NCBI RefSeq assembly: GCF_964355755.1
Contig: NC_092673.1
Span: forward strand, 10,478,001-10,542,000
Length of the DNA: 64,000 nucleotides
From: Antedon mediterranea
Taxonomy: Eukaryota > Animalia > Echinodermata
Direction of reading: 5' to 3'
Shown: one piece after another, positions 22,586-60,764 of the stretch
Numbering within the stretch: the stretch's first letter is position 1
Layout of the letters: each line of letters starts with the position of its first letter
The notes under the pieces: generated by a model
Seen by the model: only the letters and a program-made list of their open reading frames with translations
Told to the model about the DNA's origin: nothing
Databases searched by the model: none
Program-made: the position numbers and the translations under genes

Positions 22586-23344
22586 CACGTTTTTTTTTCA
22601 GTACAAACATTATACGTCTGTGTAGATTCAATAAAATCGACCTTTACTTTAATTTTGGCCATTCATTGCTAAAATGTATACAAAATCATAAAATATGCAT
22701 ATTTTGATTTTTATCGATTTCAATATTATCAAAATACTACAATTTAGCGATAACAAACATTTCCTCTTATAATTATTTTTATTTACATAAACTTGCCGTA
22801 TAATTTGTTTTGTTTTATATTTTGATTTTAGTAACGCTGAGAAATTAATAAACAAAACCTTGTTTTATATAAATGTATACATCGACATTAACTAGTTTAA
22901 TATAATGTATAATGAAACATAAATATATCAACTTACTTTGCCGATAAACTATAATATTGATTGAATAATTGTTTTTTTTTCTGTTTTATTAGTTTGGATG
23001 ATATGTTTTTATTTGTAGTTGAAAAAGGCAATTCTTTTTTGTTTTCATTTATGATAATGAGATAAAAGCTAGCTGAGTTTTAAAAACTATTTTTATAAAT
23101 GAATGTATTAATCCATGCATTTGTTGGCAGAGCTAGCTGCACTTCGATTATCATACACAAAACACTTTGGTGTAATTACCAGTAGTAGCGGCCCATGTCC
23201 ACTCAGCTCTAAAGCTTAGTATTAATAGCTCCTAACCACCTTATACTCGGTAATAATATATTAGATTCAACAAAGAAGTTATAAAGTGATGGGCTATATA
23301 CAGCAGATAACAGCGTGTATTATTCGAGCGACATGGTAGCTGCC

Positions 23345-23728
23345 TATTGACTATTTTCACATAAGTCATAATATTTATGACATTAATTTAGCAGTCATTA
23401 GGTCATAACATTTATGACAATTTAAAGGTACATGTTAAGTCTCGGAATACGCTAGTCATAGTGTATAGTACAGGAAGCACTAATTTCGGGGCTTCCTGGT
23501 ACAGTATTGACTATTTTCACATAAGTCATAATATTTATGACATTAATTTAGCAGTCATTAGGTCATAAAATTTATGACAATTTAAAACTACATGTTATGT
23601 CTCGGAATACGCTGGTTATAGTACATGAGGCTGTGATTTCCGGGCTTCAAGGTATTGATTATTTTCACATAAGTCATAATATTTATGACATGATTGTGAA
23701 GCTGCCATTAGGTCATAAAATTTATGAC
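23345..23728. repeat. Left subterminal tandem repeat: 3 units of ~150-160 bp, each with 2 GTCATAAnnnTTATGAC palindromes
   Basis: Palindromes start at 23365, 23402, 23525, 23562, 23673 and 23712. Confidence 0.93.
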
Positions 23729-26700
23729 TTCAGAAATACAAGAATTTCTCTGTAAAAATAATTAGTAGACAAAGTTTTAGTGTGCTATACAAGCTTTTTA
23801 TTAATGACAAAACATGAACACACTCAAGGTGTTTTTTCTCAGCCGTACATCAAAGAATTAAAGAACTGATAAATTTTAACTATTTATTCACTAACACTGG
23901 TTATTAATTTATGAATTAAACTCGGCTTCTAGTAAAATAAGTATTGTATGCATTACTAACTATTTATACGTGATTGTAGTAGAAAATATTTAAAAGATAT
24001 ATACATTTCACAGGCACAGAATAATTCGAAAGCGCCCAGTGAAATTTAATTATTTAATTTTAAACGATAAAGATGAGGAAATCAGTGAGAATGCCCAATC
24101 CAAGATCCGAACCCGGAACATTCTGCTTGATATGCAGATGACCATTAGACCACTGTTGTAGTACGGCGGAACAGTACTAGTCTCTCAATTGTATATACAG
24201 TATATATATAAACATCACAAGGCACAAATAAAATTTTATAAATTAATTTGAAAAGTTATATAAAATGTGATTGCAAGGCATGTGTCCAGTATCATGAATG
24301 CTATTTTCACCCCGGAAATGTGTAGTCGTCCTCCTCATTTGCCATCTCCGCATTATCTTCAACCTCCTCATCTGTACTGTCGTCCTCATCTGAAATGATG
24401 AATAAACCAAGGCCCTATTATTTAATAGACCTCTAAATAGTTGTATCATTTTTTTAGAAGCTCTGTGTAAACAAAATTTTAAAATAGAGCATCTTGTTTT
24501 TTCTTTTTAATTTGCATTACTATATGTTTCAAATTGGGTCAGAAATTGATTATGGGTATTTTGAATTTTTATTAAAAATTAAATGCATGGGCTGTGTTTA
24601 TACAAGTTTACAATACAGATAGCATAGTATGCCGTCCAAGTTATGAGAATACAGCTTAATATGCCGTTTTAAAATTCCTGAACAAAAAGTAGCAGTATAT
24701 TGCTCTACAAACATCAAATTATCAGCATTGCGACTTGAATGTATACAATATCGCTTGTATATTGTTCTTCGTATTAGCATCCATGACAATAGATAAACAA
24801 TAAAGTTAATTTAACTTAAACTTACCATCCGATTGGGCTCCATTTTCAAGCTGAATGCTGTTTTCAATTTCTTCTTTGAAACGAACTAATCTGGATCTTA
24901 ATTCAGATTTCCCATCATTCTCGAGCAAGGTTATACAATTGCGCCGTTGCAAAATTATTTCCTTGAACACTGTAATTATAATAACAATAAAATAGATTTC
25001 AATTGAATATTAAATTATTTTGTTAGTTCATTAATGTCGTTTGTACAAACGACAATAGTAATGACTCAAAGAACAAGAATTTTTCCCATTTGATTGCGCG
25101 ACATGCCCAATTGTCACGCAGTATGTTTTTGGTTAACATCAATTAATGATTATTATGAGTTATGGTATAAATGTATTATTTACCATTCCATCCTAGGCAA
25201 TTTACAACTAAGTGACCTTCTCTGCTATGCCTTGTCACTAGTTGCTTAATTAGCAGTTCTAGTGACTTAGCCTTAATGACGCCACCAATTCCATTCATCA
25301 TGCGTTCGTGTTGAGGGCTTACTAATAACGTGCGAATGGTGTCTAAAAAAATAGGAATCATCATTAAACTGTAGGCCTACATACTTACATTAACTTTCCT
25401 GTATATTTGAATATAATAATAATAATATCAATGGTACATTTCTTTTTTTTCTTTTATTAGACACAAGAAGAAATAACCCCATTACCCCACCATCCACCTC
25501 ATACCAAAAAGCAGTTAGTATTGCAAATTTGTGAACATTTTTTAGTAGACTGCCAATCAATGATTGGCCTATATTTATAATTGAATAAAAACGACTGAAC
25601 TATATTTGTAAATACAATAACAAACTGGGTATACCTTGTTCTTCGCAGTACCAATACTGTACTTGCATGACTCTATCGTTGTCTTTTAAAATAGTCATAT
25701 TGTATAGCAGGTCCTCGTCATTGCAAACAACTACGATGACATCAGAAATCAGCATTTCTTTTTCACATTTCTAAAAAAAAAAGGATAGAAAAAATAATAT
25801 AATAAGAAGAACAACAATAACAAAACCAGTAACAAAACCAGTGCAGTCTCAATGTTACTGTGTTATGCGAAAATTGCATGTGCCAGGCTTCGGGGGGTCA
25901 GTTAGAATGGGTAGAATTTTTGAATATTGTTCGGCTGTATAATCTCTAAAAATAGTTTGAATAATTGTTCTGTTGTTTATATAAATCTATTAAAATCTTT
26001 CTTAGTAAAGCCACATTGATAGGCCGTAAAAAACAATTTAGTTTCAAATTTGAAAAAACCTCACTATAGAATGAATTACAAATATACAAAACAATATAAA
26101 ATATTTAAAATATATCAAACCTCTGTCAGTACGAGCAGGCCACGATGTAACCCCATATTACTGGAATTGGCAATATCTGTCAATTTTCTGCCAATAAACG
26201 GCCCAGACATAACTTGACACTTTGATCTTGTTCCATCTTCTGTTAAAATATCAACTGTTGACGCTTGAGGGTGACTTTGCTTTTGTTCCTCCCAAAACAG
26301 AGCATCTTGACAATGCATGAATAAACCTGGTGGAATTTCGCTTTTAGATAACTTCCCTTTCAAAAGAAATGTATTAAAATGTTTTTATTATTATTTATTC
26401 AATATTTTAATTTCTATAAGGGATAGTAGTTTTGTGCGAATAAAGTACCTTTGCATCGAACTGCATAATATTAAATTGTTTCAATTTTGTACGAATTTTT
26501 AAAATCTGACAGAGTGGGACTTGGTTTTAGAAATATAGCACAAATACAGCTACTGAATTCTATTAGTAACATAGTAACCTTACTTGTTGTTAAAAAAGGC
26601 CGAAGAGCAGAATCGGTCGTGTGCTCCGGAAATCTGTCGGTCGCTTCCTTCCATGTCAGTACTTTAATAGTTGTCAAAAATTTTCCTCTGGTCACCTTTA

Positions 26701-29699
26701 TCTGCTTGATCGACCGTGCTTTATTTTCAACCTCTTTAATGGACATTGTTCCGTCTGTTACAGATGACAGCATATTAAACTTGTCTTCTTCCGACAGGCC
26801 TTGTAGTGTCATGAAGAACTATAGAATTGTAAAAAAAATGTTTAGTCACAATACTGATAACAAATAATAAAGCGTTCCAATAGGGGTTCAAGAGGTTCAG
26901 TATACACATTTCTCTCGTGTGGATAACAATTGAAAAAAACAAAACAATTGTTAATGCACGTCATATCATTTTTGAATAGGCCATTTTTTAGTTTTAACAA
27001 AGTTATTCACACCCCCCCCCCCCCCTTTAGAAAAAACAGGCCTATTTTAAAATGTTTAAATAACTTAGGCCTAATTTGAATACATTTTTATAGTTTGTTA
27101 TGTTTAGATTTAACCTGTTAGTGGCAGTTTCATAGCTGTTGGTTGACAACTGTATAAAATAAATAAATCAATAAATAATAGATTGTTTTTTACAAAGTTA
27201 TTAGGCCTAACCCTTTGAATTAAGACGCGTTGTTTCTACCGCAAGTGACTGAGACTAATAATTAACTGATTGTGTTTCTTGCTTGTTTGTTTTTGCCAAA
27301 AAAAAAGCATACACCAGTAATTGCTATCTATTGAGAGAATAAATGTGACAGAAAATAAAGGTAAGAAACCTACCGACTGCTTCAATTGCTTTCCGGGTTT
27401 GGAATCCTTTACCGTTCCTGCATTATACTGGGCAAACAGCTTGGTAACCTTTGTGTAGCATCGGTCCGTATACAATGATACTTGGAACATCGGTTCCATG
27501 GACGATATTATCTGCAATACAAAGTTATTATTTATTATTACTATCCTTATTTATTATTATCGTTATTAGCCTTTTATTATTGTTAATATCCTTATTATTA
27601 TTATTATTAATTACAACATTATTATTAATTATATCACCATTACATTAATAATTACAACTTTATATATTAGAGTCCTAAATAACTTGTTTAAATAATATTA
27701 ATAATACCTTTTTTTCGAACGATTGTTTGCCAATTGCCTCTGTACACTTTCTCCTCCATGTCGAAGTAGTTTTTGCATCTTTGTCATTGTAATCTTGCAA
27801 AATGTTGCGGCATACTGCAACGTTGTCTTCAAAAGTTGCTTGGTGAGTATTACCTGTGACGAAATTATGTCGAGATGCCACACGTAGTGATTCAGTTTTT
27901 GTTAGATCAAAATAGACTGCCACTTCTAATTGTTTAAATATATTCTCACTCATTGTTGATAGTGCTGTTCTTAAATGATTTCCGCCAAGTGAATAAAAAA
28001 TACACTTCTCGTATTCTTGTTTGTTAAAGAAATCGTTATGTTCTTTATTAAGCAATACAGGTAGTACCGTGTTCACCAGACCGTCCTTTGTAAGCGTTTC
28101 TTGAATTTTTTAAACAAAATCTTGGTCGATCTTGCGAAGTAGTAAGTCCGATGGCGGCGCTACTATCGAACTTCTTGGCACAGCAACTAGACCTAGAAAC
28201 GTAAAATGACAGTTTGTTAAATATTACATCTTATGATTATACAATAAGGAAGTATTCTCCCCAGGATTTAGATCAAGCATCGTAGTAATCTTATGTCCTG
28301 GCTAATCTGGGTGTCGGTGACTAATAATGTCAGCCTACTACTACAATTTAGTGAAATCATTTACCTGTATTTCACAATTCTAATATGAAACAACTTAATA
28401 TAAATATGTCATTGTATTATTATTATGATAGGATTTTCATATTTAATAAACCCATTTTATTTTTTACTCTCTAAAATGGGGAATTCCACAGTAATTGCAA
28501 GTTGCGACATCAGTAAAAACATTTTTAAAAATTGTTTTACATACAAAGTTGGACATTTTCAGAAAAAGGATACATTATTGAATTATATGAATTACAAAAA
28601 ATGATTGACGTTATATTTTAATATTAGTTTTATTTTTTAAATAACAATAAATATCCTAAAAATGTAACGTTGCCATACAGTATAGGCCGTTTAGTCTAGG
28701 CCTAGGTCAGGACATCAACACCCCCTGTCTGCTTGAGTGCATGGAGATCACCCTGCACATGTTATTTTTTATATTTTAGTTAATTTTGAATTTATATAGT
28801 TATTTTGCACAATATCTAGGAGGTTAGGTCTAGTGTATGTTAGCATCCGGGCTAGGTCTGGGTTTGCAAGGCTAGTAGTAGTCATGTGAAAGACAATTAA
28901 TTGTCCAATCGAATGACCGGAATCTATTTATGCGTTTTATAATAACTGTTTGAAACTTAAATAACAATAAAACAAATAGAAAATAGAGTAACTATAAGAA
29001 GTTAAAACCTGTGTTAAAAATATCTTTAGTTCGTTCATCTTCGAAAAATGTGTTCATCCGCTTTATATTTTAATAGGCCTAGTACGTATAATTACTTATC
29101 TAGCCAGATTATACTAATTTAACGTAACGAATTGTAGATACATTAAATCTAATCATGGTTAGGCCTATAGTTATTGTGAGTTATGTTTAAAATTACAGTT
29201 TTTGTTATCCAAGATCAAAGTGAATAACTATTATGTGACATATTCAACAAAACATTTGAAAAATATAAAACAGTAACGTTTGTTTAATTGTAAACTACAG
29301 TAAGACAAAAGCAGATAATATGCTTGTCTATGGGGCATGGTACAGTATGTAACTTCAATAACAAATGTTTCATATACTAACCAATGATCTTTTCTTTGAT
29401 TGTTTCGCCGATTGTCTTTATGTTAATTCTTGTTCTCTTTGTAGTTACGTTTTCAGCATCTTGAGCTTTTCGCTTTCGTAATGTTTGCAATGTTTTGGTA
29501 AGGTCGTCAATTGTCTTGCATTTGCAAAATGGGCAATTTTCGTCCGGTTTGAATTTGCTCCACAATACTTTGGTTGCAGCAAGCGTACTACTACAGTCGC
29601 TTTCTTCTGTAACAATCTATAGTATTGCAAATTTGTTTTTGATTAAATAAATAACTAAACATAGAAATTTATATTTATATAGTTGTTAAGTGTACACAC

Positions 29700-30528
29700 G
29701 GGATATGACCGGTTGGGCCGCCGACAAGTTGAGCCGCCGGTGATTTCTATGACACGCCCAGTGCATGCGTCTTTTACGACATTTCGCGTAGTGATTAGGA
29801 TGGTGTCCTAGTAGCCTACACAAGTTCATGGTCTTGGTTTATTGGTCATGAAAATAAATAACATATAATTATATATTACAATTAACAACACAGCAAAAGA
29901 AAGTAGTAATATTTAATAATTTAATTGTTTTAATCTTTCGAGGAAAAAATTCAATGCACTCATAATTTTTCTCGCGTGTAGGCCTATTACCACGTAAAGC
30001 TTTACGTGGTAGTAGGCCTACACGCGAGAAAAATTAAGTCACGTTGTCTCTCAGGACTAATTAATAGAGTTTTAATATTCTTCGAATGAGGTTAAATAAA
30101 TATTATTTTTTATTTACTAATCTTTTAATATAATATTTTATTGAATTTTACAATGTTAATACACAAAATATTTTACTAAAAAACGTGATTTTATGTAATT
30201 GTTTTACCGAAAAATGGAGTAGGCCTAGCCTAGTTCATACAACTGCCGACTGAGGGGCAACATGTTTACGTCATTTTTGGCTAAAAACGATCACTTTCGG
30301 TGATGTTTTATATTTTGGAATCTACAAGCAAGATTTCCATAATTATTTAAATATAATATTTAATAATATACATACTAAAAACCATGATATATAAACTTTT
30401 GAATGTACATCGTTATCCCTAATATAAATAGAACGAGCACCGGCGAAAGTTAGCATTTGGCGTTCCATAGAAAATAACGTTTTTCTGGCGGTGGCTCAAC
30501 TTGTCGGCGGCTCAACTAGGCCTAATCC
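29700..30528. mobile_element. Non-autonomous TIR element (GG termini, 8-bp TSD; MULE- or Merlin-type)
   Basis: TSD GTACACAC at 29692-29699 and 30529-30536. The TIRs contain the inverted motif GCCGCCGACAAGTTGAGCC. Confidence 0.8.
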
Positions 30529-31006
30529 GTACACACTACACCCTATTATTCAGGGTTTACAGCCGAAACGGCCGCCAACTGAAACGGCCGCCAATTGAAA
30601 CGCAATTAAATGTATGAAACGCCGCGTGTGCCGTTTGTCATACAAAACGACGTGTGGTTTAATACAATTGTTTTACTTTTTTTTCAGATTGAAATGACTT
30701 TAGACGTATGTGACTTAATAAATATTAAACAGATAGATGTTTTTTAATTATTTATGTATTATTATGTTTATCGTATAATAATGAATGTTGTGTAAACATA
30801 GTTGGGTTTTTTATATATTTTTTAAATGTAGGCCTATACAGTAAAAGTGTAAGGAAAAGAATTGGAATTTGACAAAATAAATGATAAATAATTACTATTA
30901 TTATATTAAAATCTAAATTCTTCCTAGTACTAGTTAGATAATTTAATATTTATTGACGATTAAATCGAATTTATGATTTTCCCCGAATAGAGGTGGTTTT
31001 CACAAA

Positions 31007-33333
31007 TAGTCCAGATCCCTATGTCAAAAAAAGTGCCTTCGTGTGCAGATCATGGGGAAAGTGTAAACATTGTGTTTTATGAATAATTGAATCATGCTGG
31101 TTATAAAAACCCATGTTGTCAAATTTCTAAAGTTCATCTTTGACCTCTGACCTCAATTTGAATGTTTTGACCCATTGAAAACAAAATGGTCATATCTTTG
31201 CAACGCTTATTTTAAATGAAATAATTTTAGTGTCAAATTATTTGGGAGATGCATATTAATATTCTTTCTAATGGAAAAGTTTGTCCAAAAATGGCCGGAA
31301 GTATGATTTTTGGCATTTTTGACCTTTGACCTACATATCATATAACTCCGTAACTAACAGTTGGACAAACTTTAAATAGGGCTCAAATTAATCTGAAGGT
31401 ATATATTTCTATTCAGTCTAATAAGAACTTTTTTGAGAAAATGACCCAAAATCTTCTTATTGACCTTTGACCTGTACAGGTAGTACACATTCCTACAGTC
31501 TTAAAAACTATTGGCCGTAAAAGGTTTTTTTTTGTGAAATTGTTCGAAAAATTTACATTTATATGTTGTATAATAACAATATTTTATAGAAATGTAAAAG
31601 AATTCTATTTATGATAACTAACTTTGTAATATATTAACATCATTAGCATTTGTTAAAATATTAAAATGTGTTATATTTGCTGATTTTAAGCACTTCACAT
31701 GAATTTATCAGAATTACGTGTATTTAAATATAAAGTTTTATTTTTTTGACATAAAGAAAATTTAATTATCTATCAAATAAGACTATTTTCAAATTATTAT
31801 GGCTAAATCTTAATTAGATACAGGCAAAAAGGTGTATTTTTTTTACTTGTGTGAACAGCGCCCTCAATCTTCATTTTCCCCTAAAAAATACCACATTTTT
31901 ATGTGGTTTCATAAACTTAGCGGGTTGTAACTTTTTAAAAGATTTGTTGTCAGTGAAGTGTAACTCACATACCCCTTCTACCACATACTAAGTAAGTTTC
32001 TGAGATAAAATGAAAAAAATATTTTTATTGCTTGATATTTTTCTTAAGGTTTTTACATGGTACACGCTAAAAAAGATTTTGATTTTGTGCTAAAAATCCA
32101 TGTTTTTAGTTCAGTACAACAATCTTGTACAGACATTCTTACACAAACAGCATATTTTATTGGAAAGGTAATCATAATATCTATCCAATAAAAATTTTAT
32201 GAATTTTGTGTATTAATATCTGCTAGATAGCTTTTATTAAACCAAAAAGATGGACTTTTAGCTCAAATCTAAAATATTTTTTGGTGTGTATCATGTAATA
32301 ACCTCAACAAAAATATCAAGCTATCAAAATATTTTTCTCATTTTTTTTCAGAAACTGACCTAGTACGTTATAAAAGTGATATGTAAATTACAGGTTACTG
32401 TAAATAATCTTTAAAGCAAAGTTATAACCTGTTAAATTTATGAAACCACATAAAAATGTGGTATTTTGAGGGAAAAATTAAGATTGAGGGCGCTGTTCAC
32501 ACAAGTAAAAAAATACACCTTTTTGCCTGTATCAAATTAAGTTTTAGCCATAATAATTTGAAAATAGTCTTATTTGATAGATAATTAAATTTTCTTTATG
32601 TCAAAAAAATAAAACTTTATATTTAAATACACGTAATTCTGATAAATTCATGTGAAGTGCTTAAAATCAGCAAATATAACACATTTTAATATTTTAACAA
32701 ATGCTAGTGATGTTAATATATTACAAAGTTAGTGATCATAAATAGAATTCTTTTACATTTCTATAAAATATTGTTATTATACAACATATAAATGTAAATT
32801 TTTCGAACAATTTCACAAAAAAAAACCTTTTACGGCCAATAGTTTTTAAGACTGTAGGAATGTGTACTACCTGTACAGGTCAAAGGTCAATAAGAAGATT
32901 TTGGGTCATTTTCTCGAAAAAGTTCTTATTAGACTGAATAGAAATATATATCTTCAGATTAATTTGAGCCCTATTTAAAGTTTGTCCAACTGTTAGTTAC
33001 GGAGTTATTTGATATGTAGGTCAAAGGTCAAAATTGCCAAAAATCATACTTCCGGCCATTTTTGGACAAACTTTTCCATTAGAACGAATATTAATATGCA
33101 TCTCCCAAATAATTTGACACTAAAATTATTTCATTTAAAATAAGCGTTGCAAAGATATGACCATTTTGTTTTCAATGGGTCGAAACATTCAAATTGAGGT
33201 CAGAGGTCAAAGATGAATTTTAGAAATTTGACAACATGGGTTTTTATAACCAGCGTGATTCAAATATTCATAAAACACAATGTTTACACTTTCCCCATGA
33301 TCTGCACACAAAAATACATAGGGATCTGGACTA
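31007..33333. mobile_element. Foldback element with ~0.9-1.1 kb TIRs, Academ-like (TAG...CTA ends, AAA on both flanks)
   Basis: Ends TAGTCCAGATCCCTATGT ... ACATAGGGATCTGGACTA. Arms are near-identical from 31007 to ~31915, then more diverged to ~32105. Alternative reading: TA TSD with GTCC ends. Confidence 0.8.
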
Positions 33334-33359
33334 AAATTGTTTTACATTATATTATAAAC

Positions 33360-33865
33360 ATATACACGTTGTAGTGATGTATCGTTACATGTGCTGTACT
33401 ATTTCAATCGACTAGGACGGTGATAGTTTCAACAAAGTATTACATCGCAATGTTTTACTGTGTTTAGTGGTATATTATTTGTAAAACATGAAAGCAATTA
33501 ATATTTCGTTACTAAATGGATAAAGAATATATTTTAACATTGTTCCTCTTTGCACCCATCCTCTTCCCCATCCCTCAACCCTAATGTTACATACAAAACA
33601 CAAATTAAGTTTGTTTAAATTTTACTTAAACAATTGGTCTTATTTTGTGACAAGTTTCTCTTTCGGAAGTAATAGGGTGCTAATTTTAGTTGAGTACATA
33701 AATCACAGTGTCTATTTATTCGTTCCTGTACACGACATGTATTATTGTCCTGCGGTACGTACATTTGAAATCGCCAGTTTTTTAACGCTGAAATTATTAT
33801 GTATTCGAGAACCATCTGTGGGCACGACCTAGATGGTACGCGAGCGAAGCGAGCGTACCATCTAG
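33360..33865 (+). mobile_element. Non-autonomous Helitron-like 3' segment (copy 1)
   Basis: Ends with the hairpin GGTACGCGAGCGAAGCGAGCGTACC followed by ATCTAG|T. It is an inverted homolog of 34373-34890; the 5' boundary is approximate. Confidence 0.65.
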
Positions 33866-34372
33866 TGTTGATAATTTGATAACAAGTAATGTTCAATTGG
33901 AAAAAACTCCATTTTAAAGGAAAACGCAAGCACCAAAAAGTGCGTGGCATTTCTGTGCAAATAATAGATTATTGTCTTTATGTAATGTTAGATGACGCCG
34001 ATACGCGGAGCTCCACAGATAATGTGACTAGGCGCGGTTAATGCGCTAACATCTAACATAAATTCAAAACAATTAGCCCCGCGAAGGTGTTGTTGATACA
34101 CATAATAGTAAAACAATAGGACACAACTTCATTTAAAGTGCTTTATTTGCACGTTAGAATGTTTGAATATTATTCCACAATTTCATATGTTATTGAATTT
34201 ACTATAGACCTAATAAGTAACAATATAAATAGCTTTACTACATAACATATATTAATATTATTACAGTACATTTGTATTTGTTTTGCCTATTTCAACTTCA
34301 ATAATTGATACAGTATTTGTTTGAATACGTTAAATAAATTTATATTGCGCTTAGAATGGTGAATTATTATAA

Positions 34373-34890
34373 CTAGATGGTACGCTCGCTTCGCTCGCGT
34401 ACCATCTAGGTCGTGCCCACAGATGGTTCTCGAATACACAGTAATTTCAGCGTAACAAAACTGGCGATTTCAAATGTACGTGCCGCAGGACTATTGTCGT
34501 TTACAGAAACGAATAAATAGACACGATGATTTATGTAGTCAACTAAAATTAGCACCCCGGGAATTACTTCCGAAGGAGAAACTTATCACAAAATGAGTCC
34601 AAATTTTTGATTTGGACTCATTTAAAGAAACCCAATTTGTGTTTTGTATGGGTTTTTTTTATATTAGGGTTGAGGGATGGGAAAGCGGATAGGTACAAAG
34701 AGGAACAATTTTTAAATATATTCTTTATCCACTCAGTAACGAAATATTGTTTTCGTGTTTTATAGGCCTATAAATAATATACCTCTAAATACAGTAAAAC
34801 ATTTGCGATTTAATACTTTGTTAAAACTGTCACTGTCATAATCGATTGAAATATTAAAGTACATGTCACGATACACCACTACGACGTTTA
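34373..34890 (-). mobile_element. Non-autonomous Helitron-like 3' segment (copy 2, tail-to-tail with copy 1)
   Basis: The same hairpin plus CTAG|T on the minus strand. The body has diverged from copy 1. Confidence 0.65.
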
Positions 34891-37800
34891 TTTTATTGGT
34901 AATTATTAATTAATACAAACGTTGAGAAGGAACTGTCAGTATAAAGTTTATTTGTATATAATAATGTGTTTATATATCTAACAGTAGATCCTATCCACAA
35001 TCTCAGTAATAAAGTTTATCTGTATATATTTTTACAGTACGAACATTCACAGTAAGAAATGTTCGATTCAAATGAGGACTAAAAATAGTTACAGTATTGT
35101 CAAAGTATTGCAAGTTTATTCTCAAAGGGCCCATATATTTACCTACCGTATGTGTTAAATCAAGGGCTCATAAATTTACCTACTTGTGCTAAACCAAACT
35201 CTGGCAGACTGAGAGATTGGGATGTTCCATTCATCGCAAATCAATACATTTGTATAATCATATATTAAATCTATCAAAATAGTATTTTTTAAAGAAAATC
35301 GGCCTGTCTTCAACATTATGATGGTGTACTCTAGCTGTTCAACCGGTTTTCAGCTATTAAAAACAATTATCGTAGGAGGAGATAGGAAAATGCGAAGCCT
35401 CCTCGCATTTTTGTGGCGGGTATTTTTCAAGATGGACATCCATTAGACAGTGTATACCACGATCGGAAAACACCCCGATTTGGGGCAAATCGTTGAACCT
35501 AAATTCGTTTTAATCGTCAATAACTAATTATCTAACTTAATTTAATTAGTAAACAGGGTTACATCAGGTGGTTAAAATCAGTACCGAAAGTACGAACCAA
35601 CTTTATATACCATCGAGTAAAAATTCTAGAAGTAAGGCGCGATTTACCGAATTTTGCCCTTACGTAAATTTATATATAGATAAACATTATTTTTATAAAA
35701 ACTTAACTAAAAAATACGTTTATTCTTTGATTTTATTCTTAAACATATATTGGTTGGTTTCATTTATTTTTTTTCTCCATCATGGTTTCATAGGCTTTAC
35801 TGTACGTTTATAATACTGCATTGGCTTGTTGTAGCTGCGGCGGTATTGGCGTCCCATAGAAAATGTTGGCGGCCGTTTCAGTCGGCGGCCGTTTCGGTCA
35901 CACACCTTATTCAGTGTTGGTGCTCTTGATGAAAATGCATTTTTTAAATCATATATAAAACTGTAATGTTAAAAAAATGGTCAACAAAATTAGTATCAAT
36001 GGTCCTATAGTAAAGTTATATTACAATTTAGTTTTAGGCCTGAAACAACATTTCAATTAATTAGATGAAATAAATAATCGAATAAATCATAATATATATT
36101 AAAGTCAGAAGCCTATAAAATCCAAATATAATAGGCCTATTAAACAGCTGAAGATTGTGCCCCTGGGAAAATACTAATAAAACTAATAATTGCGTGGCTT
36201 AAAACACTTTTTAAAACTGCAAAATGGAAAATAAAACATCTTTATAAAGTAATAAGACTGGTGAAGAATGGTTCCCTAAAAACATTAAAAGAAAATTATA
36301 TTATTTAGAAGAACACAACAATCTTACCTTAAGCCAGTTTTTGCCTTTAGTTGTTTTGGTAAATTTTATAACCTTGCCTAACTGTTCACCGTCAGAATGC
36401 TTTATTGCCCTAGTGTTATTAATTATTAGATAAGCAATGTTGTCTTCCTCTACACAAAACCTCCAGTCCATTTTATCAAATGCGATAACGAAGTGATCAC
36501 AAACAATGTTGGGCGACGAGTGACGCGCTTTCACACTGTTACGATCTTTTATTTGGGCCAGGGAGTTATTAGTCAACTCCCTGTTTGGGCATTGTCCACA
36601 TTGTTTATACTAAAGCTACAGATCAGCAGGAAGAAAAACTCAAGTGCAAATCGTATTTCATATCGATAACGAGTTTTATTTGCACGATAGAGATCGATAA
36701 AATCTGCAAGTAATATATAATCATTTTCATAGAGTAACTTATATATTTTAATCTACTTATACTGTAGTAAAATAATTTTTACCATTTCCAACTAATTCAT
36801 ATTGGGCTCCCGTAATTTCACCTATGCTACACTGCATATATATATATCAACTATGTAAATACTTTATTTGCACATAACATAATAACAACATGATATAAAA
36901 AACATATGACCAAAAAATAAATAAATCATATATTCAAAAGTTTAGCGCCTCTAAAGGAAACATCAAATTGAAGTAAGAAATCCTGATATTTTAACTAAAT
37001 TAAAATTCTTGAATTAAATTCCTTTTTTATAAGCAGTTGTATATTGTTTTGTATAATTGTAAATTTATATTATATTTATAAAATAAGAAATTTCGGTTAC
37101 AAATATGCTTTTTTTTAAATACAGTATTACAGAGATGTTTTATTATTTGAAGTTTAGGTTGTTGGTGGGGTAGCCAATGAACATAAAATTATTGTATTTT
37201 GACTATTTCCATTTTGATTGGTCAATTTTGTCGTTAAAAACACGTCCGTATAAATTGTGCGTCTCTTTTGAATAACCTACTGTGTAATATTGAAGCTGTT
37301 TATAATTGTTTACTATGAATCATTAAAATATAAACATACGCCTATTTAAAATGAACTTAGAATAGTTATTAAATACATAAGACAAGCTAGTGATCAATAC
37401 TTTATTTTCTTGTAAAAAAATATGAATGTGATGATTATATCGCGTATTATAAGATAAAAGCGTTGATAGTATTCCAGATATCAACTTGAAAAATATAGAA
37501 CAAAAAAAAACAATTTTAAGCATTCATTGATCTAAACAAAAATTGTCCACTTTTTATGTACAAAAAAACAAAAGTCATATCGGATAGACCATCATCAAAT
37601 GTTCACGTATCTCTGAAATATTGTGTCGAACGAAAAGATTATTTCAATTTCAAAGTTGGCCTGTCAAACTAGGCGTTAGAAAAATAAATTAAACTAATAT
37701 TTTCATAAAATTATATTGGACAAATAAATGATATGCACATTTAATAATACAATTTACTTTTTGCATGCGCATGATATTATTATATAATGAATTTTTCAAT

Positions 37801-37962
37801 TGTGTAGCCAAGTCACACCTGTGATACATTGGGTTAACTTTCACAATTCTTATTTGTTTTTTTTTTCTTTTCTTCCATAATAGTGTGGTTCTATAATGGT
37901 TATAGTAGGTCACCCCATGAATAAAGATGCAATAGTATGATATATAACATGGTTTTATCAAA

Positions 37963-40330
37963 GTGCCGTTAAAATGAATTATTATAAAATATTATTATAA
38001 TATATCAAAGAAAAGCCACATTAAATCTTATTTAATTAGGATAATATACGGGCAACACTAGCCCTATATCAGTGGAAGTGCTTTTACAAAATTGAGAGTA
38101 TGAATATTTTACATCCATTTCAAAAGCTTCATTATTATTGCGATCTTTTAGACATTATGTGAGTTAAAAAACAGAAAATTAAAAAAACATTTAAATATAA
38201 ATTCACTAGCCCTTTATAAGTGAAAGGACAAAATTGAGAATATGAAGCAAACAAGCACTGCCTGAGTGAACTGGTTTAAAGAAATAAAAACAAAGGATCG
38301 AGGCACAAGCTGAAAACAATGAAGATAGCTTGGTAGATATAAACAATTAGGAATGTATTTAAAAAAAAACAACTCAAATGGTGGTTAATATTGAACCTTA
38401 AACTTAGGTAGTCGATGGAATAATTTTACCGATCTGGGAGTATGTTAATGTTTTGTGGCTTTAAGTAGTAATTCCAAGTTTTTTTTTGTCTTTTGACAAC
38501 CTAATATGTTCGTGTCATTGATATAAGATATTACACGAATGCGACATGTCTTTTGAATGCAATACATTGAACGTTCTTTGCGGTTTCTGCAAGTATCAGT
38601 ATTATTCATTTATATCATTCAGATTAGATATAATATTCAGAACCGGAGCAACGTTTTTGAAATTTAGTGGTAATTTAAGGTTGTGTATATTTGGAAGTCC
38701 AAACCCACGTCAGCTCGACTATGATTGGGACTAATGGTTAGAGCATTTTTAGGAATTCGGAGTTCTGTGCTGTTTCTGCGATTATCCCTTTATATCACAT
38801 TAGATAAAAAAAAAACAATGATATGTTATTGATATAAGGGTTTATATCTGTCACGGAAATTAGGCATTAATAACGTCAAGGACATTACAATTTTGTCGCA
38901 ATTGCCAACCCCAAAAACAACTATCACTCAAATCATGCTTGAAAAAGGCACAACTTTATACACCCTTTATACTACAATGATAGTTTTCAGTAATTACTTC
39001 TTATATGCATCATGCACACTAATTAATCAGTTTTGTCTTCTATATATAAATTTTGATAATGAAATTGTTTGCAACATCAATATAAACACTTCCAAAAGTG
39101 GCATACAGGGTCGGAGCCCCATGCCATTAGCTACCCATGATCATCATGTAGGCGTAGTGCCGTTAAAATGAATTATTATAAAATATTATTATTAAGCAAA
39201 GGTATAAATGTGTAATTTTATGAAAGCATTTTGTGTCTCACAGTGTAGATAGATCGCTTAATTATGGATTATTTAACCCTTTTTACCCTGGTGGTGTTTA
39301 TTTCTTTCTAATAAAAAGTCTAACCTGAAGTTTAAATCAATGAATAAAGAGTAACAGTGACCGTACCATGCATATAGGCTCAATAGAATTATAAATGTCA
39401 AAGAGTTTTGTTAAATGTTTATAATTTATCAAAGTATAGCCACATTAAATCTTTAAAACAAGTTAATCTAAACTTTTAATTCTATCTTCAAACAATTTCC
39501 TGTATGATCAAATCACCTTTTATGTATATAATTTTCAGAAATGAATACTGTACCTTGTAATAATAATATAATAATATTTATTTGGAGCAACACATATTTA
39601 ACAGTGGCACACATACAACATTTAAGCATATCAAAATATGTTTATACCTCCATGATTTAAGCAACACAATTACTTTAAAAAAAAACTATACAAAAACAAT
39701 AGAAAATAAAAACTGAAACTACCTGTACAACTTGTCATATTTAATTAATAGGATAATATACTATATCAGTGGAAGTGCTTTTACAAAATTGAGAATATGA
39801 ATATTTTACATCCATTTCAAAAGCTTCATTATTATTGCGATCTTTTAGACATTATGTGAGTTAAACAACAGAAATTTAAAAAAAACATTAAATATAAATT
39901 CACTAGCCCTTTATAAGTGACAGGACAAAATTGAGAATATGAAGCAAACAAGCACTGCCTGAGTGAACTGGAATAAAGAAATAAAAACAAAGGATCGAGG
40001 CACAAGCTGAAAACAATGAAGATAGCTTGGTAGATATAAACAATTAGGAATGTATCTAAAAAAAACAACTCAAATGGTGGTTAATATTGAACCTTAAACT
40101 TAGGTAGTCGATGGAATAATTTTTACGATCTGGGAGTATGTTAATGTTAAGATCAAACAGTTTTGTGGCTTTAAGTAGTAATTCCAAGTTTTTTTTTGTC
40201 TTTGCGAGTTTTGTCGCTCCATTTGACAACCTAATATGTTCGTGTCATTGATATAAGATATTAAACGATTGCGACATGACTTTTGAAAGCAACAAGACTA
40301 CATTAAAAGTCCTGTGCGATTTCTGCAAGT
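37963..40330. repeat. Local direct duplication of ~0.6 kb (about 38030-38600 vs 39745-40330) with partial inverted copies at ~41560-41595 and ~43720-43950
   Basis: Shared text, e.g. TATATCAGTGGAAGTGCTTTTACAAAATTGAG and GGTAGTCGATGGAATAATTTT. Confidence 0.85.
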
Positions 40331-42924
40331 AGATTGAATTAACATTTCGGTTACAGAAAAATTAATGTTTTTTATAGCTGATCTGTGTGTCATTCTAATA
40401 CACAGAGTGTTTTGGTTTCTACCACTCACTACAAATATTACAGTGTATGATATAAATGACATTTTTGGTTAGACAATTAATTGGTTATGATTTTCTATGA
40501 AGCAACAAGCTAAGCCAATTTAAGCACGTATTGGAAAAGTGTTGGCATATAGGCTAATATAATAATAATTTGTTTTACACGTGCATGATTAATTATACTG
40601 TACTTTTTAATTCGAGTCTTTGTTGTTAATTCATTAAACCAATCACTTTATAATATAGGCCCACTAAATTTTGTAATAATAATTCGTTTAGGCCTTAAAA
40701 CATTCTCAACTAAATTTGGAACAAATAAGTCACCTCTGTGATTGAAGTTCGCTTTTTGATAGCTCGGTTATGTCAGGTAGGCCTACTAATAGCTGAATGC
40801 GATATCTAGAAGCAAAACGAAGACAGCCGACCTGATACCGCTGAGATACGATAGCCAGTTTTATAAAGATGTTGTCTGAGAGAGGGAATCAACATACGAG
40901 TTCATCATAATAAATTTGTTCGACCGACATAAAAGTCATTCGAGATTTTTGACTCCGAAACTAAGACAAATGTGACGATTTTTTTTTTTAAACAGATGCA
41001 AAGCACACAACGAGACACATTTAAAAGCTGAACCTATAACAACACCGTGCTCTATATTCTTAGCTTAATTGACTATTTAAAATACATGGAAAGTACTTAG
41101 TAAAGTATACAAAAAAACACTTCGAAGTTTGCATTGCGAAATTAATAATTATGTTGAATGATGAAGTACGGGCTTGTATTTAATAGGTAACATACATACA
41201 AAATTGCCTTTAGTGACTATATCTTAGTCATACAGAAGAACTTTGAACTTCGATAGGGAATAGGCAATAACTTGTATTGTCATTATTCGAGTGATTTATA
41301 TTAATATATACACTAGGCCTACAGTATATAATTACGAAATTATTTTGGTGCTAGATTGCCTGGTTTCCATCTAAGGGACAACACACAATAAGTTTTGATG
41401 CCTAAATAGGAGATGAAAATTAAAAGTTTTAAAAGTATTTTAATTTTCTAACGGATTAGGTCTATAAGAAACGTATGGTATATGGTTGCCATTTAAAAGA
41501 GCTTTCATTTACAATCACCAGCATAACTTTTAATGTATGATACTTTGATGAAAATTCATGTCGCAATCGTGTAATATCAATGACACGAATATAGGTATTT
41601 ACGATCAAATTAAAATAGTTTAAAGCGTGTAGACTAAATGGGATTCAAACAACTTCTAAAGTGTATTGTTCGTTACATTTTTCATAACTGTAATTCTATC
41701 CTATAGCACTCAACCCGAACAATTATTTACTTCTTGATTTTTAGCAATATATCCTAATATTACGTAATATATGATACGAATTCAATTAGATAAACAATCT
41801 CAGTATAACCAGACTATGTTCAGAAGGTTCAAAAGTACGGAAAGTAAAAAGGGATGTGTTCGTTAATATAGATAAATACTGCCAGTGTTAATATAAAACG
41901 TATTTATAGAATCGGACACAGCATCATAAAATCGAGAGACGACAAAACTTTTTTCAGGAATATAGACCAGGCAATGCACTCTTACTTTTAGCTAACATTA
42001 TTTTTGAGAGGATTAAAAATCCGGAATGTCTGAATAAAAGTATAGGTAGGCCTATAGGTAAAATTAAGATTATCGAAGAAACGGTACATTAGACTACTTT
42101 ACATCTTGTCTATAGTTTTCACTTTTATTTGCACCCCTAAACAAATAATATTGCTAAATTTAGTTTTCCTTGGCATTTAATGTATGAACTAAAAATTATT
42201 GTAAATGAAAAGTTTTTTAAACGGAAACAAATCCAATACGTTTTTGGGATGGATTCCTATAGTTTTACCTAGTTTTACTCTAGAGGGCATGTCCAGTCCT
42301 ATCTATTTATTGCTTGAAACTATAATCAGCGGTTTTTTAAAACTTTAAACTTATCTGTGATATTATCAAGAGTTAATAGTGGAATTGCTAGCAATCTAAG
42401 CTATGTCCATATTCCTAACAAATGCTCTAACCAACCCCATGGTCGGGCTGAGGTGGTATTAGACTAAAGTATCTGAACATTATATTAGTAATTTGAACGT
42501 TATTATTATTATTATTTTCCGTCCAAATGGGGTAGCTAATTACATTATAGTGACTCCGACCCTGACAATTCGGAAGTAGACTTTTGTTTTATATTCAGAT
42601 GAATATAAGGAATAATTGATAATTATAGAAACATTTTAATACAAATCAGGTAGGCCCCTATTTACAATCACATTAATTTAAAAAAAGTTCAAGCGTTAAT
42701 TAAAATGTTTCATAGACTCATATTTCATAGTTTATATTTAACTTTGGTTATACTGTATATGATTTTTAGCAATAAATCCTAATATCACGTAAAAACAAGA
42801 TATGAAAGTCACAGTCCAATTCAGTGGCAACAGGCATTTGATATGGTCGTCCAAAACTCCGTTTAAAAGATGTTAGTAAGCGTGATCGGTTTTCTTTTAA
42901 TATTCCCACTGGTTCTTGGGAAAT

Positions 42925-43480
42925 GTAAACATTATACAGTAACGGATACATGATTCCACCCTGTCGCACTCCGTTTCTTACATAGAACCATCGGGAGATA
43001 GATCTTCCCCATTTAATACAAAACTGTTGCTGTGAGTACCAACACGATAACAATTTTACAATTGCGGTTGGCATCTTTCTGTTTAACAATTTTTAAAAAA
43101 GAGTCCAGTTATTTAATCTGTCATATGCCTTAGAGGCATCAAGAAAGCAAGCATATACAGGGATATTTTGCCGAGTATAAAATGCAACAACTTGTTTTAA
43201 GACTAATATACATGTATCTGTGGAGTGACCCGATTTAAACGCAAACTGATGGTCAGATGACTTAAGGCTATCTCCGGACAATTTAATTAATACAAATTCT
43301 AGTACCTTAGATACCACACTAGCTAAAGCTATAGGCCTAATTGCTTTTACTCGTAATATCACCTGATTTAGATTTTAAAATCGGAACAATTTATCACTAG
43401 ATAAATCTTTAATAATGCCCGCTACCTGTTGGACATTTACCTCACAACCACAATCATCATTACAATTAACAAGTATACTG
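42925..43480 (-). pseudogene. Non-LTR retrotransposon reverse transcriptase fragment
   Basis: RPIALASVVSKVLE, QFAFKSGHST, CFLDASKAYDRL, NGVRQGGIM.PLLYNVY. Contains an in-frame stop and is truncated before YADD. Confidence 0.9.
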
Positions 43481-43954
43481 TGAACATAATCCTCCGTCAT
43501 GAAATAACCTCTCAACTGCATACTGCATAATTTTCAGATAATCAACCAAACGTGTTTTTGTTATCATCCGGAATGAACAATAATTGCAAGTAATTGAAAA
43601 TCCGAATGCACCACAAGGTGTATCATTCCCTAAATTGCCCAAAAAGCTTTTATAAAATGTGTCAATTGAGACGTTCTTTCACGAAAAAAACCACTTGGAA
43701 TTACTACTTAAAACCACGAAATATTTTGACTTAACATTAGGAACATATTCCCAGATCGGTAAAATTATTCCATCGACTACCTAAATTTAATGTTTCAATA
43801 TTAACCACCATTTGAGTTGATTTTTAATTCAATTTCTAAATTGTTTATATATACCAAGCTATCTTTATTGTTTTCTAATCTCACTCTTTTCACCAGCATT
43901 ATGCCTCTTTTGTTTTATTTCTTTTATTCCAGTCCACTCAGGCAGCGCTTGATT

Positions 43955-44130
43955 TCTACACACTGATGAAGAGCTAGTTTTGCCCGAAAGCTCTGCTAAT
44001 TTTGTCTAGTTGTTTAAATTGTATCGTTTAGATTTAGCTTTTTGATTATATTATTTTGTATCTTTATTAAGATCAAGCCACTGATACCCACAGTCACACT
44101 GATACCCACAGCATTGTCTTTTTTTCAGTA
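43955..44130 (+). mobile_element. Penelope-like element terminal remnant with degenerate hammerhead core
   Basis: CTGATGA (43963) ... GAAA (43986). The downstream AGCCACTGATACCCACA segment recurs at ~47290-47345. Confidence 0.45.
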
Positions 44131-46069
44131 ATTTGGATTTATATTGAAAATTATCTATTTTTTTCAACCCACTAAGGCTGTCTCTCTCTCTCTCTAATTC
44201 TGTTAATATTATATATAAATGAACTTACAAAAGATTTCAAAGAGAAAGAGATTAATATTTTTTATTGATAAAAAGACTCATTCTTGGCCGACGATATAAT
44301 TCTCATTGGAAATAGTGAAAATGATCTACAATCATTATTGAAAGCATCAATTTAGAACCAAATTTAAAATGTTATAATTTTGAAAAATAATATGCAGGCC
44401 TGATTGTAACCAACCACCAACGCATTAACAATCAAATGAAATAGCCAATCGGTAACAAATTCATAGACGAAGCCAACATGTATAGCATGCACACAGAAAT
44501 TACAAAAACACAAGCCATATAGATGAAGGAAAAGGATCGAACAGAATTATTTTATTAAATTTTCATGCAGTCAAACAACGCAACAAAGCAACCTGGGGAT
44601 TTCCTTTCTTGAGTGCTAAGCACTATCGAATTGGTTATCTATACTGCATTTCAATCGTAAAACAATAAAAATACATAAGATATAATAAATTGTGTGAACA
44701 ATCATTTAAATATACAGATAACATGGTTCGTGTGTACAGACAATTAAAGATGATATACGATAAAATTAGGAATATCTTGCCAAACATGGGGACAATTTTT
44801 ATACAAGGAATAATTAAAAGAATTGGTTCTTTAATATTATTAATTATTCTTTAACAATTGTGTTCTGTTTATGTAGTTATCTGTATGAAAAAAAGCGCCA
44901 TCTATAGCGGACGTATAAGTAGCGATAATTTTGACCAATCAAATTGGGATTCTTTCAAACTCATTGTTTCCTAAAAAAAATCCCAAGCTCTGAACTTACC
45001 ACTCATCGTATTACTATAAGGATATTCATTTCTGAAAAATAGGCCAAGTTTACATGAAGGATGATTTGATCATAATAGGGGAAGTGGTTTGATGATAGAA
45101 TCTAAAGTTTATATAAACTTTTTTTTTAAGATTTAATGTGGCGTACAGTTAATTATGTTATGAATTTTTTTGTATCTCTTTATCAAAAGCACAGTCTCAA
45201 TGAGGGAGATGTGCAACAAGAGTAAATAAACATAATTATATTTTTAAAAAAATATACATAAAAACCATTAAAAAAAATATTTAAAAAGTATAATTTGTCA
45301 TGACAAACCACTGACAAATTTGATATCTTCAAATATAAAACAAAACGTAAAAAAACAAAGCATTATTAAAAGTAAACTGAGAAAGATTAAAAACTAGAAA
45401 TGTTACTGTTACTCTATATTCATGCACTACGCATATTTTAGTTTACATTTCTATGGCTTTAGGTTAAATCAGGGATCAACCCAAGTTTTCGGCATGTATT
45501 GAATATAGGACTATTCCATTATTATTTATAGGGGTGTTAGTCAATATGTTGGGTTAGGTGTGCCAGGCTTGTTGAGGCTTCTATTGTTCGTGTCATTGTG
45601 CCAATTGTTTTGTATTTCACTGTGTTTGATAAAAACAAACAAAAAACTGCTGCTGTAGTTAGCCTATAGCTTTTATTATGTGTCTGTAAATTATATCGTA
45701 TTTTACACTATATACAGTAGCCTATAGGCCCTAACATGTTTTTTTACTCAACAGTTAAATCAAGTAGCCTCTACAAATAACAAGAAAAGATCAAGAAAAA
45801 GATTCATATACATTTTAATCTTATTTAATTTATGTTTTAATTTATATAAAATATCCAATTTATGTTTTAATTTATATAAATACATCCATGTTTGGTTTTT
45901 TTTCTCAACAGTTGCAAATAGCCTCTACAAACAACAAGAAAAAAATCGATAGATCGAAAGATACATTCTTCAAACTTTATTCAAATATAAGGCACAAGAA
46001 CTTTAACATTATTTAATAAGGCACAAGGAACATATACTATTTTAACTTACTTAATCTGTTTAATTTATA

Positions 46070-46300
46070 TTATGCCATATCTTTCTCGCCACATAAATTC
46101 GTCAAGGTATTCCGGTAACCATTCCCGTTTACACCTATTCTTTTTAACTTTAATTTTTCACGATTCCAGTAGGATTCTATGTTTTGAGTGTGGACTCCTG
46201 TTATTGGATCAACAACATTCTTACTGTGGTTTACTGTTAAGTGTCCATCTACCACATCCAGGTCCTGTACTCTGGAATAAACCTTCCATTTATTTGATGG
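46070..46300 (-). pseudogene. Merlin/IS1595(ISXO2)-family transposase C-terminal fragment
   Basis: HLTVNHSKNVVDPITGVHTQNIESYWN motif; frameshifted and truncated. Confidence 0.85.
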
Positions 46301-46399
46301 TCATTTTAATATAAGGCATGAAATAAGATTATTGGCATGTATTTATTTTGTTTGTATGGTATTTATATTTTTGTAATATTTTGTTTGGTTGGAATTCAC

Positions 46400-46909
46400 T
46401 GAATCTTTTACAGTAATTTATTAATAACGGTACCTGTGATTTTACATTACCATTGACCATTGAAATCGACAGTAATTTTAATGTAGTTTTACAGTTATTT
46501 ATCAACATTATTCTACATTAATGGTAGACCACTTCCTTTGAAATCGACAGTAATTTTACGTAGTTTTATGGTACCCGTGATTTTACGTTATTGTTGACAA
46601 ACAGACTTTCAGATTAACAGTAATTATACTGTAGTAATTTATTAGAAACGGTACCTGTGATTTTACGTTATAGTTGACATCCGACTTTCAAGTTAACAGT
46701 AATTTGTAGTTTTACAGTAATTTATTTTCAACAGTACCTGTGATTCTACATTACGGTAGACAACCGAGTTTATGACCAACAGTAATAATTTACTGTAGTT
46801 TTACAGTAATTTATTTTCAACAGTACCTGTAATTCTACATTACGGTAAATTACTGGCGTCCAGATTGCCAGTAATTTACAGTTTTTTTATAAGAATTTTT
46901 TTAACAGTG
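46400..46909. mobile_element. EnSpm/CACTA-type non-autonomous element end with internal tandem repeats
   Basis: Terminus TTTTTAACAGTG|TA (reverse complement CACTGTTAAAAA), subterminal hairpin AAATTACTGGC...GCCAGTAATTT, and degenerate repeats containing GTACCTGTGATTTTAC. The other end was not found. Confidence 0.55.
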
Positions 46910-47835
46910 TAGGCCCTATATATCCTGTACTGGGGAAGGGTTAGTGTGTGTTGCATGAGAGAAAGTTCTGCAATTTTATTTCTGACTATTTTAGTTTTTG
47001 TGTCAGGATCAGCTGGAGAGAGAACCTCACGAACATTGCTAACTCATTGAGTTGAACCAAACATGACACTACTAAATAACACTTAAAACTGGGTCGATGA
47101 AATAAAACATATATACCTTCAATTAAATATGTTACACAATGTATGTTTTGCTTAATCTTATGCCTTTAAGTGTACTGAATTTGTTAAAGTCATAAACTGT
47201 TGAGAAAAAAACAAACATGGATGTATTTATATAAATTGTTTTTCTGGCTGTTTTACTTTATCGTTTTGATTGAGCTTTTCGCTTTTTTTTTTGTATCTCT
47301 ATTGAGATCCAGCCACTGATACCCACATCATTGTCGTTGTTTCATTAATTTTCCTTTGGATTTATATAAATTAAAACATAAATTAAATAAGTTGTATATG
47401 TTTTCTCCTTATTGTGAATAACGTTTGAATGTATTTTTTCTTGTTATTTGTAAGAGGCTATATAACTTGATTCGGCTGTTGAGAAAAAAAAAACATATAA
47501 TAATATTACATGAAATGTAAAATAAAACATGATAATATGATTTAACTGTTGACGGTAAAAAACATGTTAGGGCCTATAGGCTATATAAATATAGTGTAAA
47601 ATACGATATAATTTACAGACACATAGGCTAACTATAGCAGCAGTTTTTTGTTTGTTTTATCAAACACAGTGAAATACAAAACAATTGGCACAATGACACG
47701 AACAATAGAAGCCTCAACAAGCCTGACACACCCAACCCAACATATTGACTAACACCCCTATAAATAATAATGGAATAGTCCTATATTCAATACATGCCGA
47801 AAACTCAGGTTTAAAGTAGTACAGTATTGTAATTG

Positions 47836-47890
47836 CATTGGACGTTGACGACGTCACATGAAATATAACGTTGATCAGCAGCCAATCAAA
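47836..47890 (+). promoter_or_regulatory. Possible transposase promoter (ATTGG/CCAAT boxes flanking a CRE-like TGACGACGTCA)
   Basis: Motifs lie about 100-150 bp upstream of ATG 47985. Motif evidence only. Confidence 0.3.
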
Positions 47891-47984
47891 TTCGTTCGCG
47901 CTTTTTCCAAAGATTAGATGCGAATGACGGTTAAATGAACATAAAACCGTATATTGTTCATTTCTGTTATCAATTTGTTAAATC

Positions 47985-60651: not shown

Positions 60652-60764
60652 TGCAGGGAGCTTTACAACTCACTGGTTGTCACAATAGGGTGCACATTAA
60701 TGGAATTTTACATGTATAATGAATCTAAAAAAATTATTTAATTTTCAACCAATTTCATAATTGT

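Follow-up and report, generated by a model that had tools for sequence, protein, structure and literature searches.

A spliced ParB-like gene with a methyltransferase-like domain, paired with a Sola1-like transposase in a 39-kb crinoid transposon that carries palindrome arrays near both ends

Organization of the locus

The analyzed window, a stretch of 64,000 nucleotides from the crinoid Antedon mediterranea (contig NC_092673.1 of assembly GCF_964355755.1, positions 10,478,001 to 10,542,000; coordinates given below are those of the window unless a locus is named), contains a whole DNA transposon with two genes placed head-to-head and a palindrome repeated near both ends (Table 1). The plus-strand gene encodes a DDE-type transposase with two matches to DUF7869 (E-values of 3e-36 and 8e-33), which probably corresponds to the Sola1 transposase, given the parallel with an Ectocarpus element discussed below. 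The minus-strand gene encodes a protein with a predicted ParB-like N-terminal half, a helical middle domain aligning with helix-turn-helix (HTH) domains, and a methyltransferase-like C-terminal domain with eroded catalytic and S-adenosylmethionine (SAM)-binding motifs.

The ends of the window element were inferred from those of two related elements on other contigs (L005 and L007, described below); CACTA/Chapaev-like ends had been considered for it and were dropped once these were seen. Identical 4-bp flanks are found at 22582–22585 and 61787–61790 on the assumption that the first two bases are missing from the left end, and this duplication is weak because the flanks consist of a CT repeat.

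Table 1. Coordinates of the transposon, its two genes and associated features in the window.
Feature	Position	Strand	Description
DNA transposon, whole	22586..61786	.	~39.2 kb including nested insertions; AT-rich; short inverted ends; set in a 19-bp satellite
Left array	23365..23728	.	6 palindromes in a 160-bp tandem unit, located downstream of the ParB-like gene and 779-1142 bp from the left end
ParB-like gene, window copy	24307..36471	-	Exons 36471-36328, 29616-29382, 28192-27708, 27511-27374, 26818-26584, 26356-26121, 25770-25635, 25342-25184, 24969-24826, 24389-24307
Putative exon 1	36328..36471	-	Based on a start codon and a GT donor in frame
Exon 3	27708..28192	-	Predicted ParB/sulfiredoxin-fold N-domain, with conserved GGxH and HN motifs
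In-frame stop	28110..28112	-	Codon 154; inactivates the window copy
Exons 4-5	26584..27511	-	Helical middle domain aligning with the HTH DNA-binding domain of ParB/Noc/KorB
Exons 6-9	24826..26356	-	Probable remnant of a beta-class amino-methyltransferase, with erosion of the catalytic and SAM-binding motifs
Foldback insertions	31038..34891	.	Resembling miniature inverted-repeat transposable elements; within intron 1
Putative acidic 5' transposase exon	47982..48240	+	Upstream of the long terminal repeat (LTR) insertion; based on likeness to the reading frame 54560-54850
Nested LTR element	48247..53888	+	Within the 5' part of the transposase; LTRs 99% identical; 4-bp duplication
DUF7869 (PF25273) DDE-type transposase core	56589..60651	+	549 codons open across 6 exons, plus a putative last exon
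Right array	60847..61200	.	6 palindromes in a 56-bp tandem unit, located downstream of the transposase and ~0.6-0.95 kb from the right end

The ten exons of the ParB-like gene add up to 664 codons, and all nine introns are of the GT-AG type. Splicing was checked by comparing four runs over positions 24250–29700. One of them, X1 (RNA by the tool's guess only), showed joints matching six of the nine junctions overall (six of the eight introns within the compared interval), and none of these six was among the joints displayed for the other three runs. Two further junctions were matched by RefSeq models, and P0005, a protein encoded on another chromosome, was 98% identical across residues 192–664. 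Exon 1 remains putative, as its homology had no significant support (E-value of 0.6 to the most similar-looking relative). Nine RefSeq models, near-identical and several of them shortened, grouped with the window gene and were located on at least four chromosome-scale contigs. P0005 opens with 43 residues of the antisense frame of the transposase joined to exon 3; therefore, both genes lie on one unit on that chromosome too.

The window copy of the gene is a pseudogene and cannot make the 664-aa protein, because of the in-frame stop at codon 154; contigs from X1 and from X4 have a sense codon at this place. An initial annotation, made from the letters alone, had joined ten exons into a protein of ~670 aa. 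Its exon structure was largely borne out, except that it overlooked the stop codon, which lies inside a helix that it had quoted; it also overlooked the element ends and the palindrome arrays, the latter being the best clue to mechanism.

Two additional exons were rejected. One, at ~25950–25880, contains an aspartate-proline-proline stretch that could have been the missing catalytic motif; X1 joins 26121 directly to 25770, and the gene model keeps its frame without that exon. The other, a 35-nt micro-exon at 27149–27115, was likewise ruled out by X1 joints. Separately, three runs of one sample showed a joint that skips 2.4 kb (25963–28385) and with it the ParB exon, which indicates that there are copies with internal deletions.

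Palindrome arrays and independent elements

An open palindrome scan of the window element gave a 17-bp palindrome as its top class. Its 12 sites in the window lie six near each element end, with none elsewhere, and the corresponding 24 matches on the two strands compare with 0.12 by chance, a number reached in none of 100 shuffles. The left and right tandem units are unrelated, the palindrome alone being common to both, and the intergenic region between the gene pair contains no palindrome even at three mismatches.

Related elements were retrieved from metagenomes with a subgroup of ParB-like relatives as query (three loci: L001, L002 and L003), and five further loci, two of them long (L005 and L007) and three short, were obtained when only the transposase served as query. 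The same head-to-head pair was found on three independent contigs (L002, L005 and L007), each with its own repeated palindrome. L002 encodes a transposase 29–35% identical to that of the window and a ParB-like protein with intact methyltransferase motifs, and bears 10 perfect copies of a palindrome related to the one in the window; L003 is a short relative of this locus. Both long transposase loci include a spliced ParB-like gene (best exons with E-values of 1e-37 or lower) and palindrome sites downstream of both genes, amounting to 30 in L005 (8 left and 22 right) and 12 in L007 (six on each side, those on the right occurring once per 385-bp tandem unit), with none in 100 simulated controls for either element. 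L001 also has its own repeated palindrome (4 matches at ≤1 mismatch) on a contig too short for a transposase. These palindromes are element-specific and 12–18 bp long; the parS site is described as 16 bp.

Both long elements are bounded by imperfect inverted end repeats and identical 4-bp flanks, read by eye: L005 spans 2663–13569 of its contig (flanks 2659–2662 and 13570–13573) and L007 spans 1353–15102 (flanks 1349–1352 and 15103–15106). The Sola1 feature of a 4-bp target site duplication with inverted ends was therefore found in L005 and L007, and in weaker form in the window. None of the three duplications fits the AWWT target preference included in the Sola duplication rules (PMC3845634; also PMC3627910), and a Sola1 family of Ectocarpus is likewise listed with a target bias other than AWWT (PMC12477816).

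The L005 and L007 contigs (0.59–0.73 Mb) are filed under bacterial genome bins, yet carry intron-containing transposon genes, and are probably eukaryotic DNA because of those introns. The same minisatellite lies ~450 bp outside both ends of L005 (1063–2212 and 14014–14140), followed by a Helitron-like helicase region (14488–18536). L007 is not in a satellite.

Protein family and its domains

A profile search of 1.84 billion proteins yielded 319 matches at E ≤ 0.001, of which 150 were listed. Among 20 listed relatives that were looked up, the named hosts were sea urchins, a brittle star, a hemichordate, sea anemones, a nemertean, a mussel, Chara and an amoebozoan; one family cluster contains a 56-aa bacterial member. 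The orthologue in Anneissia japonica is 52% identical to the Antedon protein. Single-sequence Pfam and PDB searches with the protein of the window gene gave no match, word-based homologue searches returned nothing beyond two crinoid proteins, and three scans of viral contigs detected no relative of the ParB-like protein. On a quick preliminary tree, crinoid rows clustered with other animal rows, and neither transfer nor order of events was read from it.

The structure of the N-terminal half was approached through an AlphaFold model of the Anneissia protein, based on a 62-row alignment and with a predicted local distance difference test (pLDDT) value of 80. Foldseek searches with this model returned 22 matches at E ≤ 0.001, the best being Noc (E-value of 3e-6), followed by ParB and KorB, and including Spo0J and sulfiredoxin (Srx). 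The alignments with Noc, ParB, KorB and Spo0J covered ~200–280 columns of the predicted model, spanning the N-domain and the HTH domain. A KorB match for residues 96–224 of P0005 was middling (Z 6.5, root-mean-square deviation 3.7, 95 aligned), and the best solved relative by family profile was a sulfiredoxin (E-value of 0.0086). Together, the predicted model and the profile support a ParB/Srx fold for the N-domain, which in the predicted models is followed by an HTH domain, as in ParB CTPase clamps. Two glycines are conserved in 60 of 61 sequences, a histidine in 50 of 61, an upstream arginine in 50 of 55, and the residues of the HN pair in 56 and 57 of 62, which suggests a kept pocket.

Regarding the C-terminal domain, all ten structural neighbours of an Atlas model of P0005 residues 290–480 were clusters of N6_N4_Mtase (PF01555), with TM scores of 0.68–0.72 by query. 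The PF01555 cut-off of Pfam was passed by five of 34 relatives, and the family profile matched M.RsrI weakly (E-value of 0.064). The catalytic DPPY motif is intact in P0173, P0177 and L002, and the FxGxG-type SAM motif is recognisable in P0038, P0062, P0079 and P0117. Neither is preserved in the crinoid protein: according to the profile alignment only an aspartate is left at the place of DPPY, and the SAM motif is eroded. Eight echinoderm rows, some of them truncated, showed neither DPPY nor FxGxG by pattern. The same eroded form of the SAM motif is present in a 46%-identical relative, and therefore the domain seems retained though probably inactive. These comparisons give good support to a descent of the C-terminal domain from N6/N4 methyltransferases of the beta class, both of whose motifs have eroded in the crinoid lineage; the methyltransferase fold of the crinoid protein itself, as judged from models, is supported less so.

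The domain assignments of the initial annotation largely held up. The ParB-like and methyltransferase-like residues that it quoted are present, a ParB/Srx fold is what the Noc and sulfiredoxin matches point to, and a beta-class methyltransferase descent with FxGxG and DPPY eroded agrees with the structural neighbours and the profile alignment. Its description of the protein as non-catalytic fits the crinoid protein and not the whole family, given the members with intact DPPY. This range from intact to eroded methyltransferases shows which half of the protein selection kept, and the members with intact motifs are candidate mobile sources of N6-adenine or N4-cytosine marks in eukaryotic DNA.

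Comparison with known systems

The closest description found is that of Sola1-1_Ec32 from the brown alga Ectocarpus, a 21.5-kb element with a 4-bp duplication, in which a gene on the opposite strand encodes a ParB-like domain fused to an N4-cytosine/N6-adenine methyltransferase; the same paper suggests that such accessory proteins form a new class, binding and modifying the element that encodes them (PMC12477816). Compared by description, the two share a giant size, the opposite-strand fusion gene and the 4-bp duplication, and the first three bases of the printed terminus of Sola1-1_Ec32 are those of the L005 and L007 ends and of the right end of the window element. They differ in host (an alga vs. 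an animal), protein length (1104 vs. 664 aa) and inverted ends (282 bp vs. very short here), and the window element shows eroded methyltransferase motifs and palindrome arrays at both ends, the latter not mentioned for Sola1-1_Ec32 in the available text. In Bostrychia, a giant Plavaka transposon encodes the ParB-like accessory protein PAG3, whose gene lies beside tandem inverted-repeat arrays and which is proposed to bind its own element (bioRxiv 10.1101/2025.02.11.637652). The likeness extends to the protein type, the giant transposon and the nearby inverted-repeat arrays; in contrast, the Bostrychia element has an EnSpm/Plavaka transposase, a 2-oxoglutarate oxygenase fused to ParB and a separate methylase gene, and the description of its arrays is confined to the neighbourhood of PAG3.

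Bacterial ParB, Noc and KorB resemble the crinoid protein in the predicted N-domain and HTH domain and in the presence of repeated 12–18 bp palindromes on the same DNA as the gene. In contrast to them, the crinoid protein lacks the Box II arginine and a ParA partner, belongs to a spliced eukaryotic transposon, and would have a methyltransferase fold in place of the C-terminal dimerisation domain. Phage fusions of ParB_N and N6_N4_Mtase (PMC12704722, PMC4738411) have the same domain order, and the structural neighbours of the C-terminal domain include clusters of this kind; a phage fusion is a plausible ancestor. The transposon proteins differ from them in their long helical HTH-like middle domain and in having a DDE transposase as partner rather than a terminase locus. 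Other ParB-linked methyltransferases were reported by Iyer in 2016 (PMC4738411), and a 2025 survey of the ParB fold gives sulfiredoxin as its common eukaryotic representative (PMC12704722).

The search of the literature on ParB, transposons and methyltransferases, which left subscription journals and Repbase outside its scope, yielded neither an example from an animal nor a description of arrays at both ends. The gene pair itself is already published for brown algae; its occurrence in animals and the arrays at both ends were not found in the literature searched. The family adds a ParB-like protein with a predicted HTH domain to animal genomes, and the predicted fold together with the arrays would amount to a ParB–parS-like pair belonging to a eukaryotic transposon.

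Proposed role and alternative explanations

On balance, we lean towards the interpretation that the Sola1-like transposon has two genes, the ParB-like gene being the second, and that the product of the latter likely binds the palindrome arrays of its own element and likely helps to gather the distant ends. That a dimer of a ParB-like HTH protein binds the parS-sized palindrome repeated near both ends is the part that we propose with good confidence. The dimer would read the symmetric site via its HTH domains; the protein would coat each subterminal array and bridge or slide between the arrays, bringing the ends to the transposase. A precedent for such a second protein is En/Spm TnpA, which is non-catalytic and described as binding subterminal repeats near either end of its element; its job there may serve as a model for end gathering, purely as an analogy, since its fold and the transposase superfamily are unrelated to those of the window element. 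Since some relatives keep DPPY, methylation of the element was probably a further function of the ancestral protein, and in crinoids the methyltransferase fold would likely have been retained for a structural or dimerising role alone. The stop-bearing window copy would rely on protein supplied by another copy. If the ends are indeed bridged, this would account for the mobility of giant transposons, and transposon tools could be made to carry larger cargo. Candidate binding sites are now available for four different elements, making binding and specificity swaps testable at once.

A bolder extension, which we put forward only tentatively, is that a group of eukaryotic DNA transposons in animals, algae and amoebae has its own ParB-parS pair, in which a nucleotide-gated clamp loads at element-specific end palindromes, spreads, and joins the ends for the transposase, letting elements of 10–40 kb keep moving; protein and site would then co-evolve in each family. 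The initial annotation had also suggested a nucleotide-dependent clamp as a possibility; the Box II residues described below lend this no support.

Several results weigh against end gathering by a ParB-like protein. The position of the ParB Box II (GxxR) arginine is a leucine in the crinoid protein, and the arginine is absent in 57 of 61 relatives and present in four; 33 of the 61 have an arginine one position after that place. In tested proteins of the 2025 survey, changing the Box II arginine abolished nucleotide binding (PMC12704722). The Pfam ParB models gave no match in the 34 relatives scanned. The model of the Antedon C-terminal domain is weak (pLDDT ~40–70), and Foldseek and VIA gave only generic alpha/beta matches to it, with no methyltransferase, a result that says little because of the low pLDDT. 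Regarding the arrays, sites inside one tandem array are non-independent, the palindrome patterns were picked from the data, and the controls were shuffled or simulated sequences. The three short transposase loci (contigs of 2.5–4.8 kb) had neither a partner gene nor an array, and six of the 10 palindromes of L002 lie between the two genes and not at the ends.

The latter observation bears on a rather unlikely alternative, in which the palindrome-bound protein would be a KorB-like long-range regulator of the two genes of the element, or would protect the element against silencing by the host (with methylation in members whose enzyme is intact), without pairing the ends. A regulator fits L002 better, since six sites lie between its divergent genes and two others in the intron region of the ParB-like gene; KorB and Noc are also among the top fold matches, and the Ectocarpus and Bostrychia papers propose self-binding and self-modification. 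Against it, the sites of the window, L005 and L007 are near the ends and downstream of both genes, and the window has none in its intergenic region. We consider it improbable that the palindromes are instead binding sites of the transposase, the ParB-like protein doing another job such as choosing satellite target DNA. Transposase-bound subterminal repeats are common, a satellite adjoins the window element, and one minisatellite flanks L005 on either side; however, the palindromes are perfect or near-perfect, lie several hundred bases away from the ends and differ from the terminal repeats, and those of L002 are mostly internal. Further points against this alternative are L007, which lies outside a satellite, and a 2.15-kb element in the same satellite as the window element that has no array.

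Very improbable, and already largely refuted, is that the gene is a host gene or captured cargo next to the transposase by chance. It is intron-rich, spliced in the RNA-like run and has relatives across animals, as a host gene might; against this, it is present in many copies in one genome, several of them truncated, the same head-to-head pair recurs in L002, L005 and L007, and the last two have inverted ends and identical 4-bp flanks. The link between accessory gene and transposase made by the initial annotation is thereby upheld. 

Additional features of the window

The LTR element nested in the transposase includes a gag-like frame (DUF1759, E-value of 0.017), a PHD-finger-like exon at ~51337–51586 and a TatD-like frame (E-value of 2e-8), whereas frames of at least 120 aa for a reverse transcriptase or an integrase are absent; this young element is probably non-autonomous. 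A literature search on this element found no match.

The C-terminal small domain of the transposases (60220–60651 in the window, 425–1000 in L002 and 10904–11374 in L007) shows a common tryptophan-tyrosine/methionine strand. Pfam had no match for this end domain, which presumably resembles Tudor/SH3-like folds.

The 19-bp satellite (1–22585 and 61787–64000) has a strong strand skew and the same orientation on either side of the element, and includes a short inverted stretch at ~12030–12095. It also hosts the non-coding 2.15-kb element mentioned above (16397–18548), which has imperfect inverted ends and identical 4-bp flanks, is inserted at nearly the same satellite phase as the large element, and contains no palindrome array. 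Two short stretches, one in the satellite (16040–16316) and one in a transposase intron (58820–58980), were found by eye to be similar, and probably belong to one dispersed repeat family.

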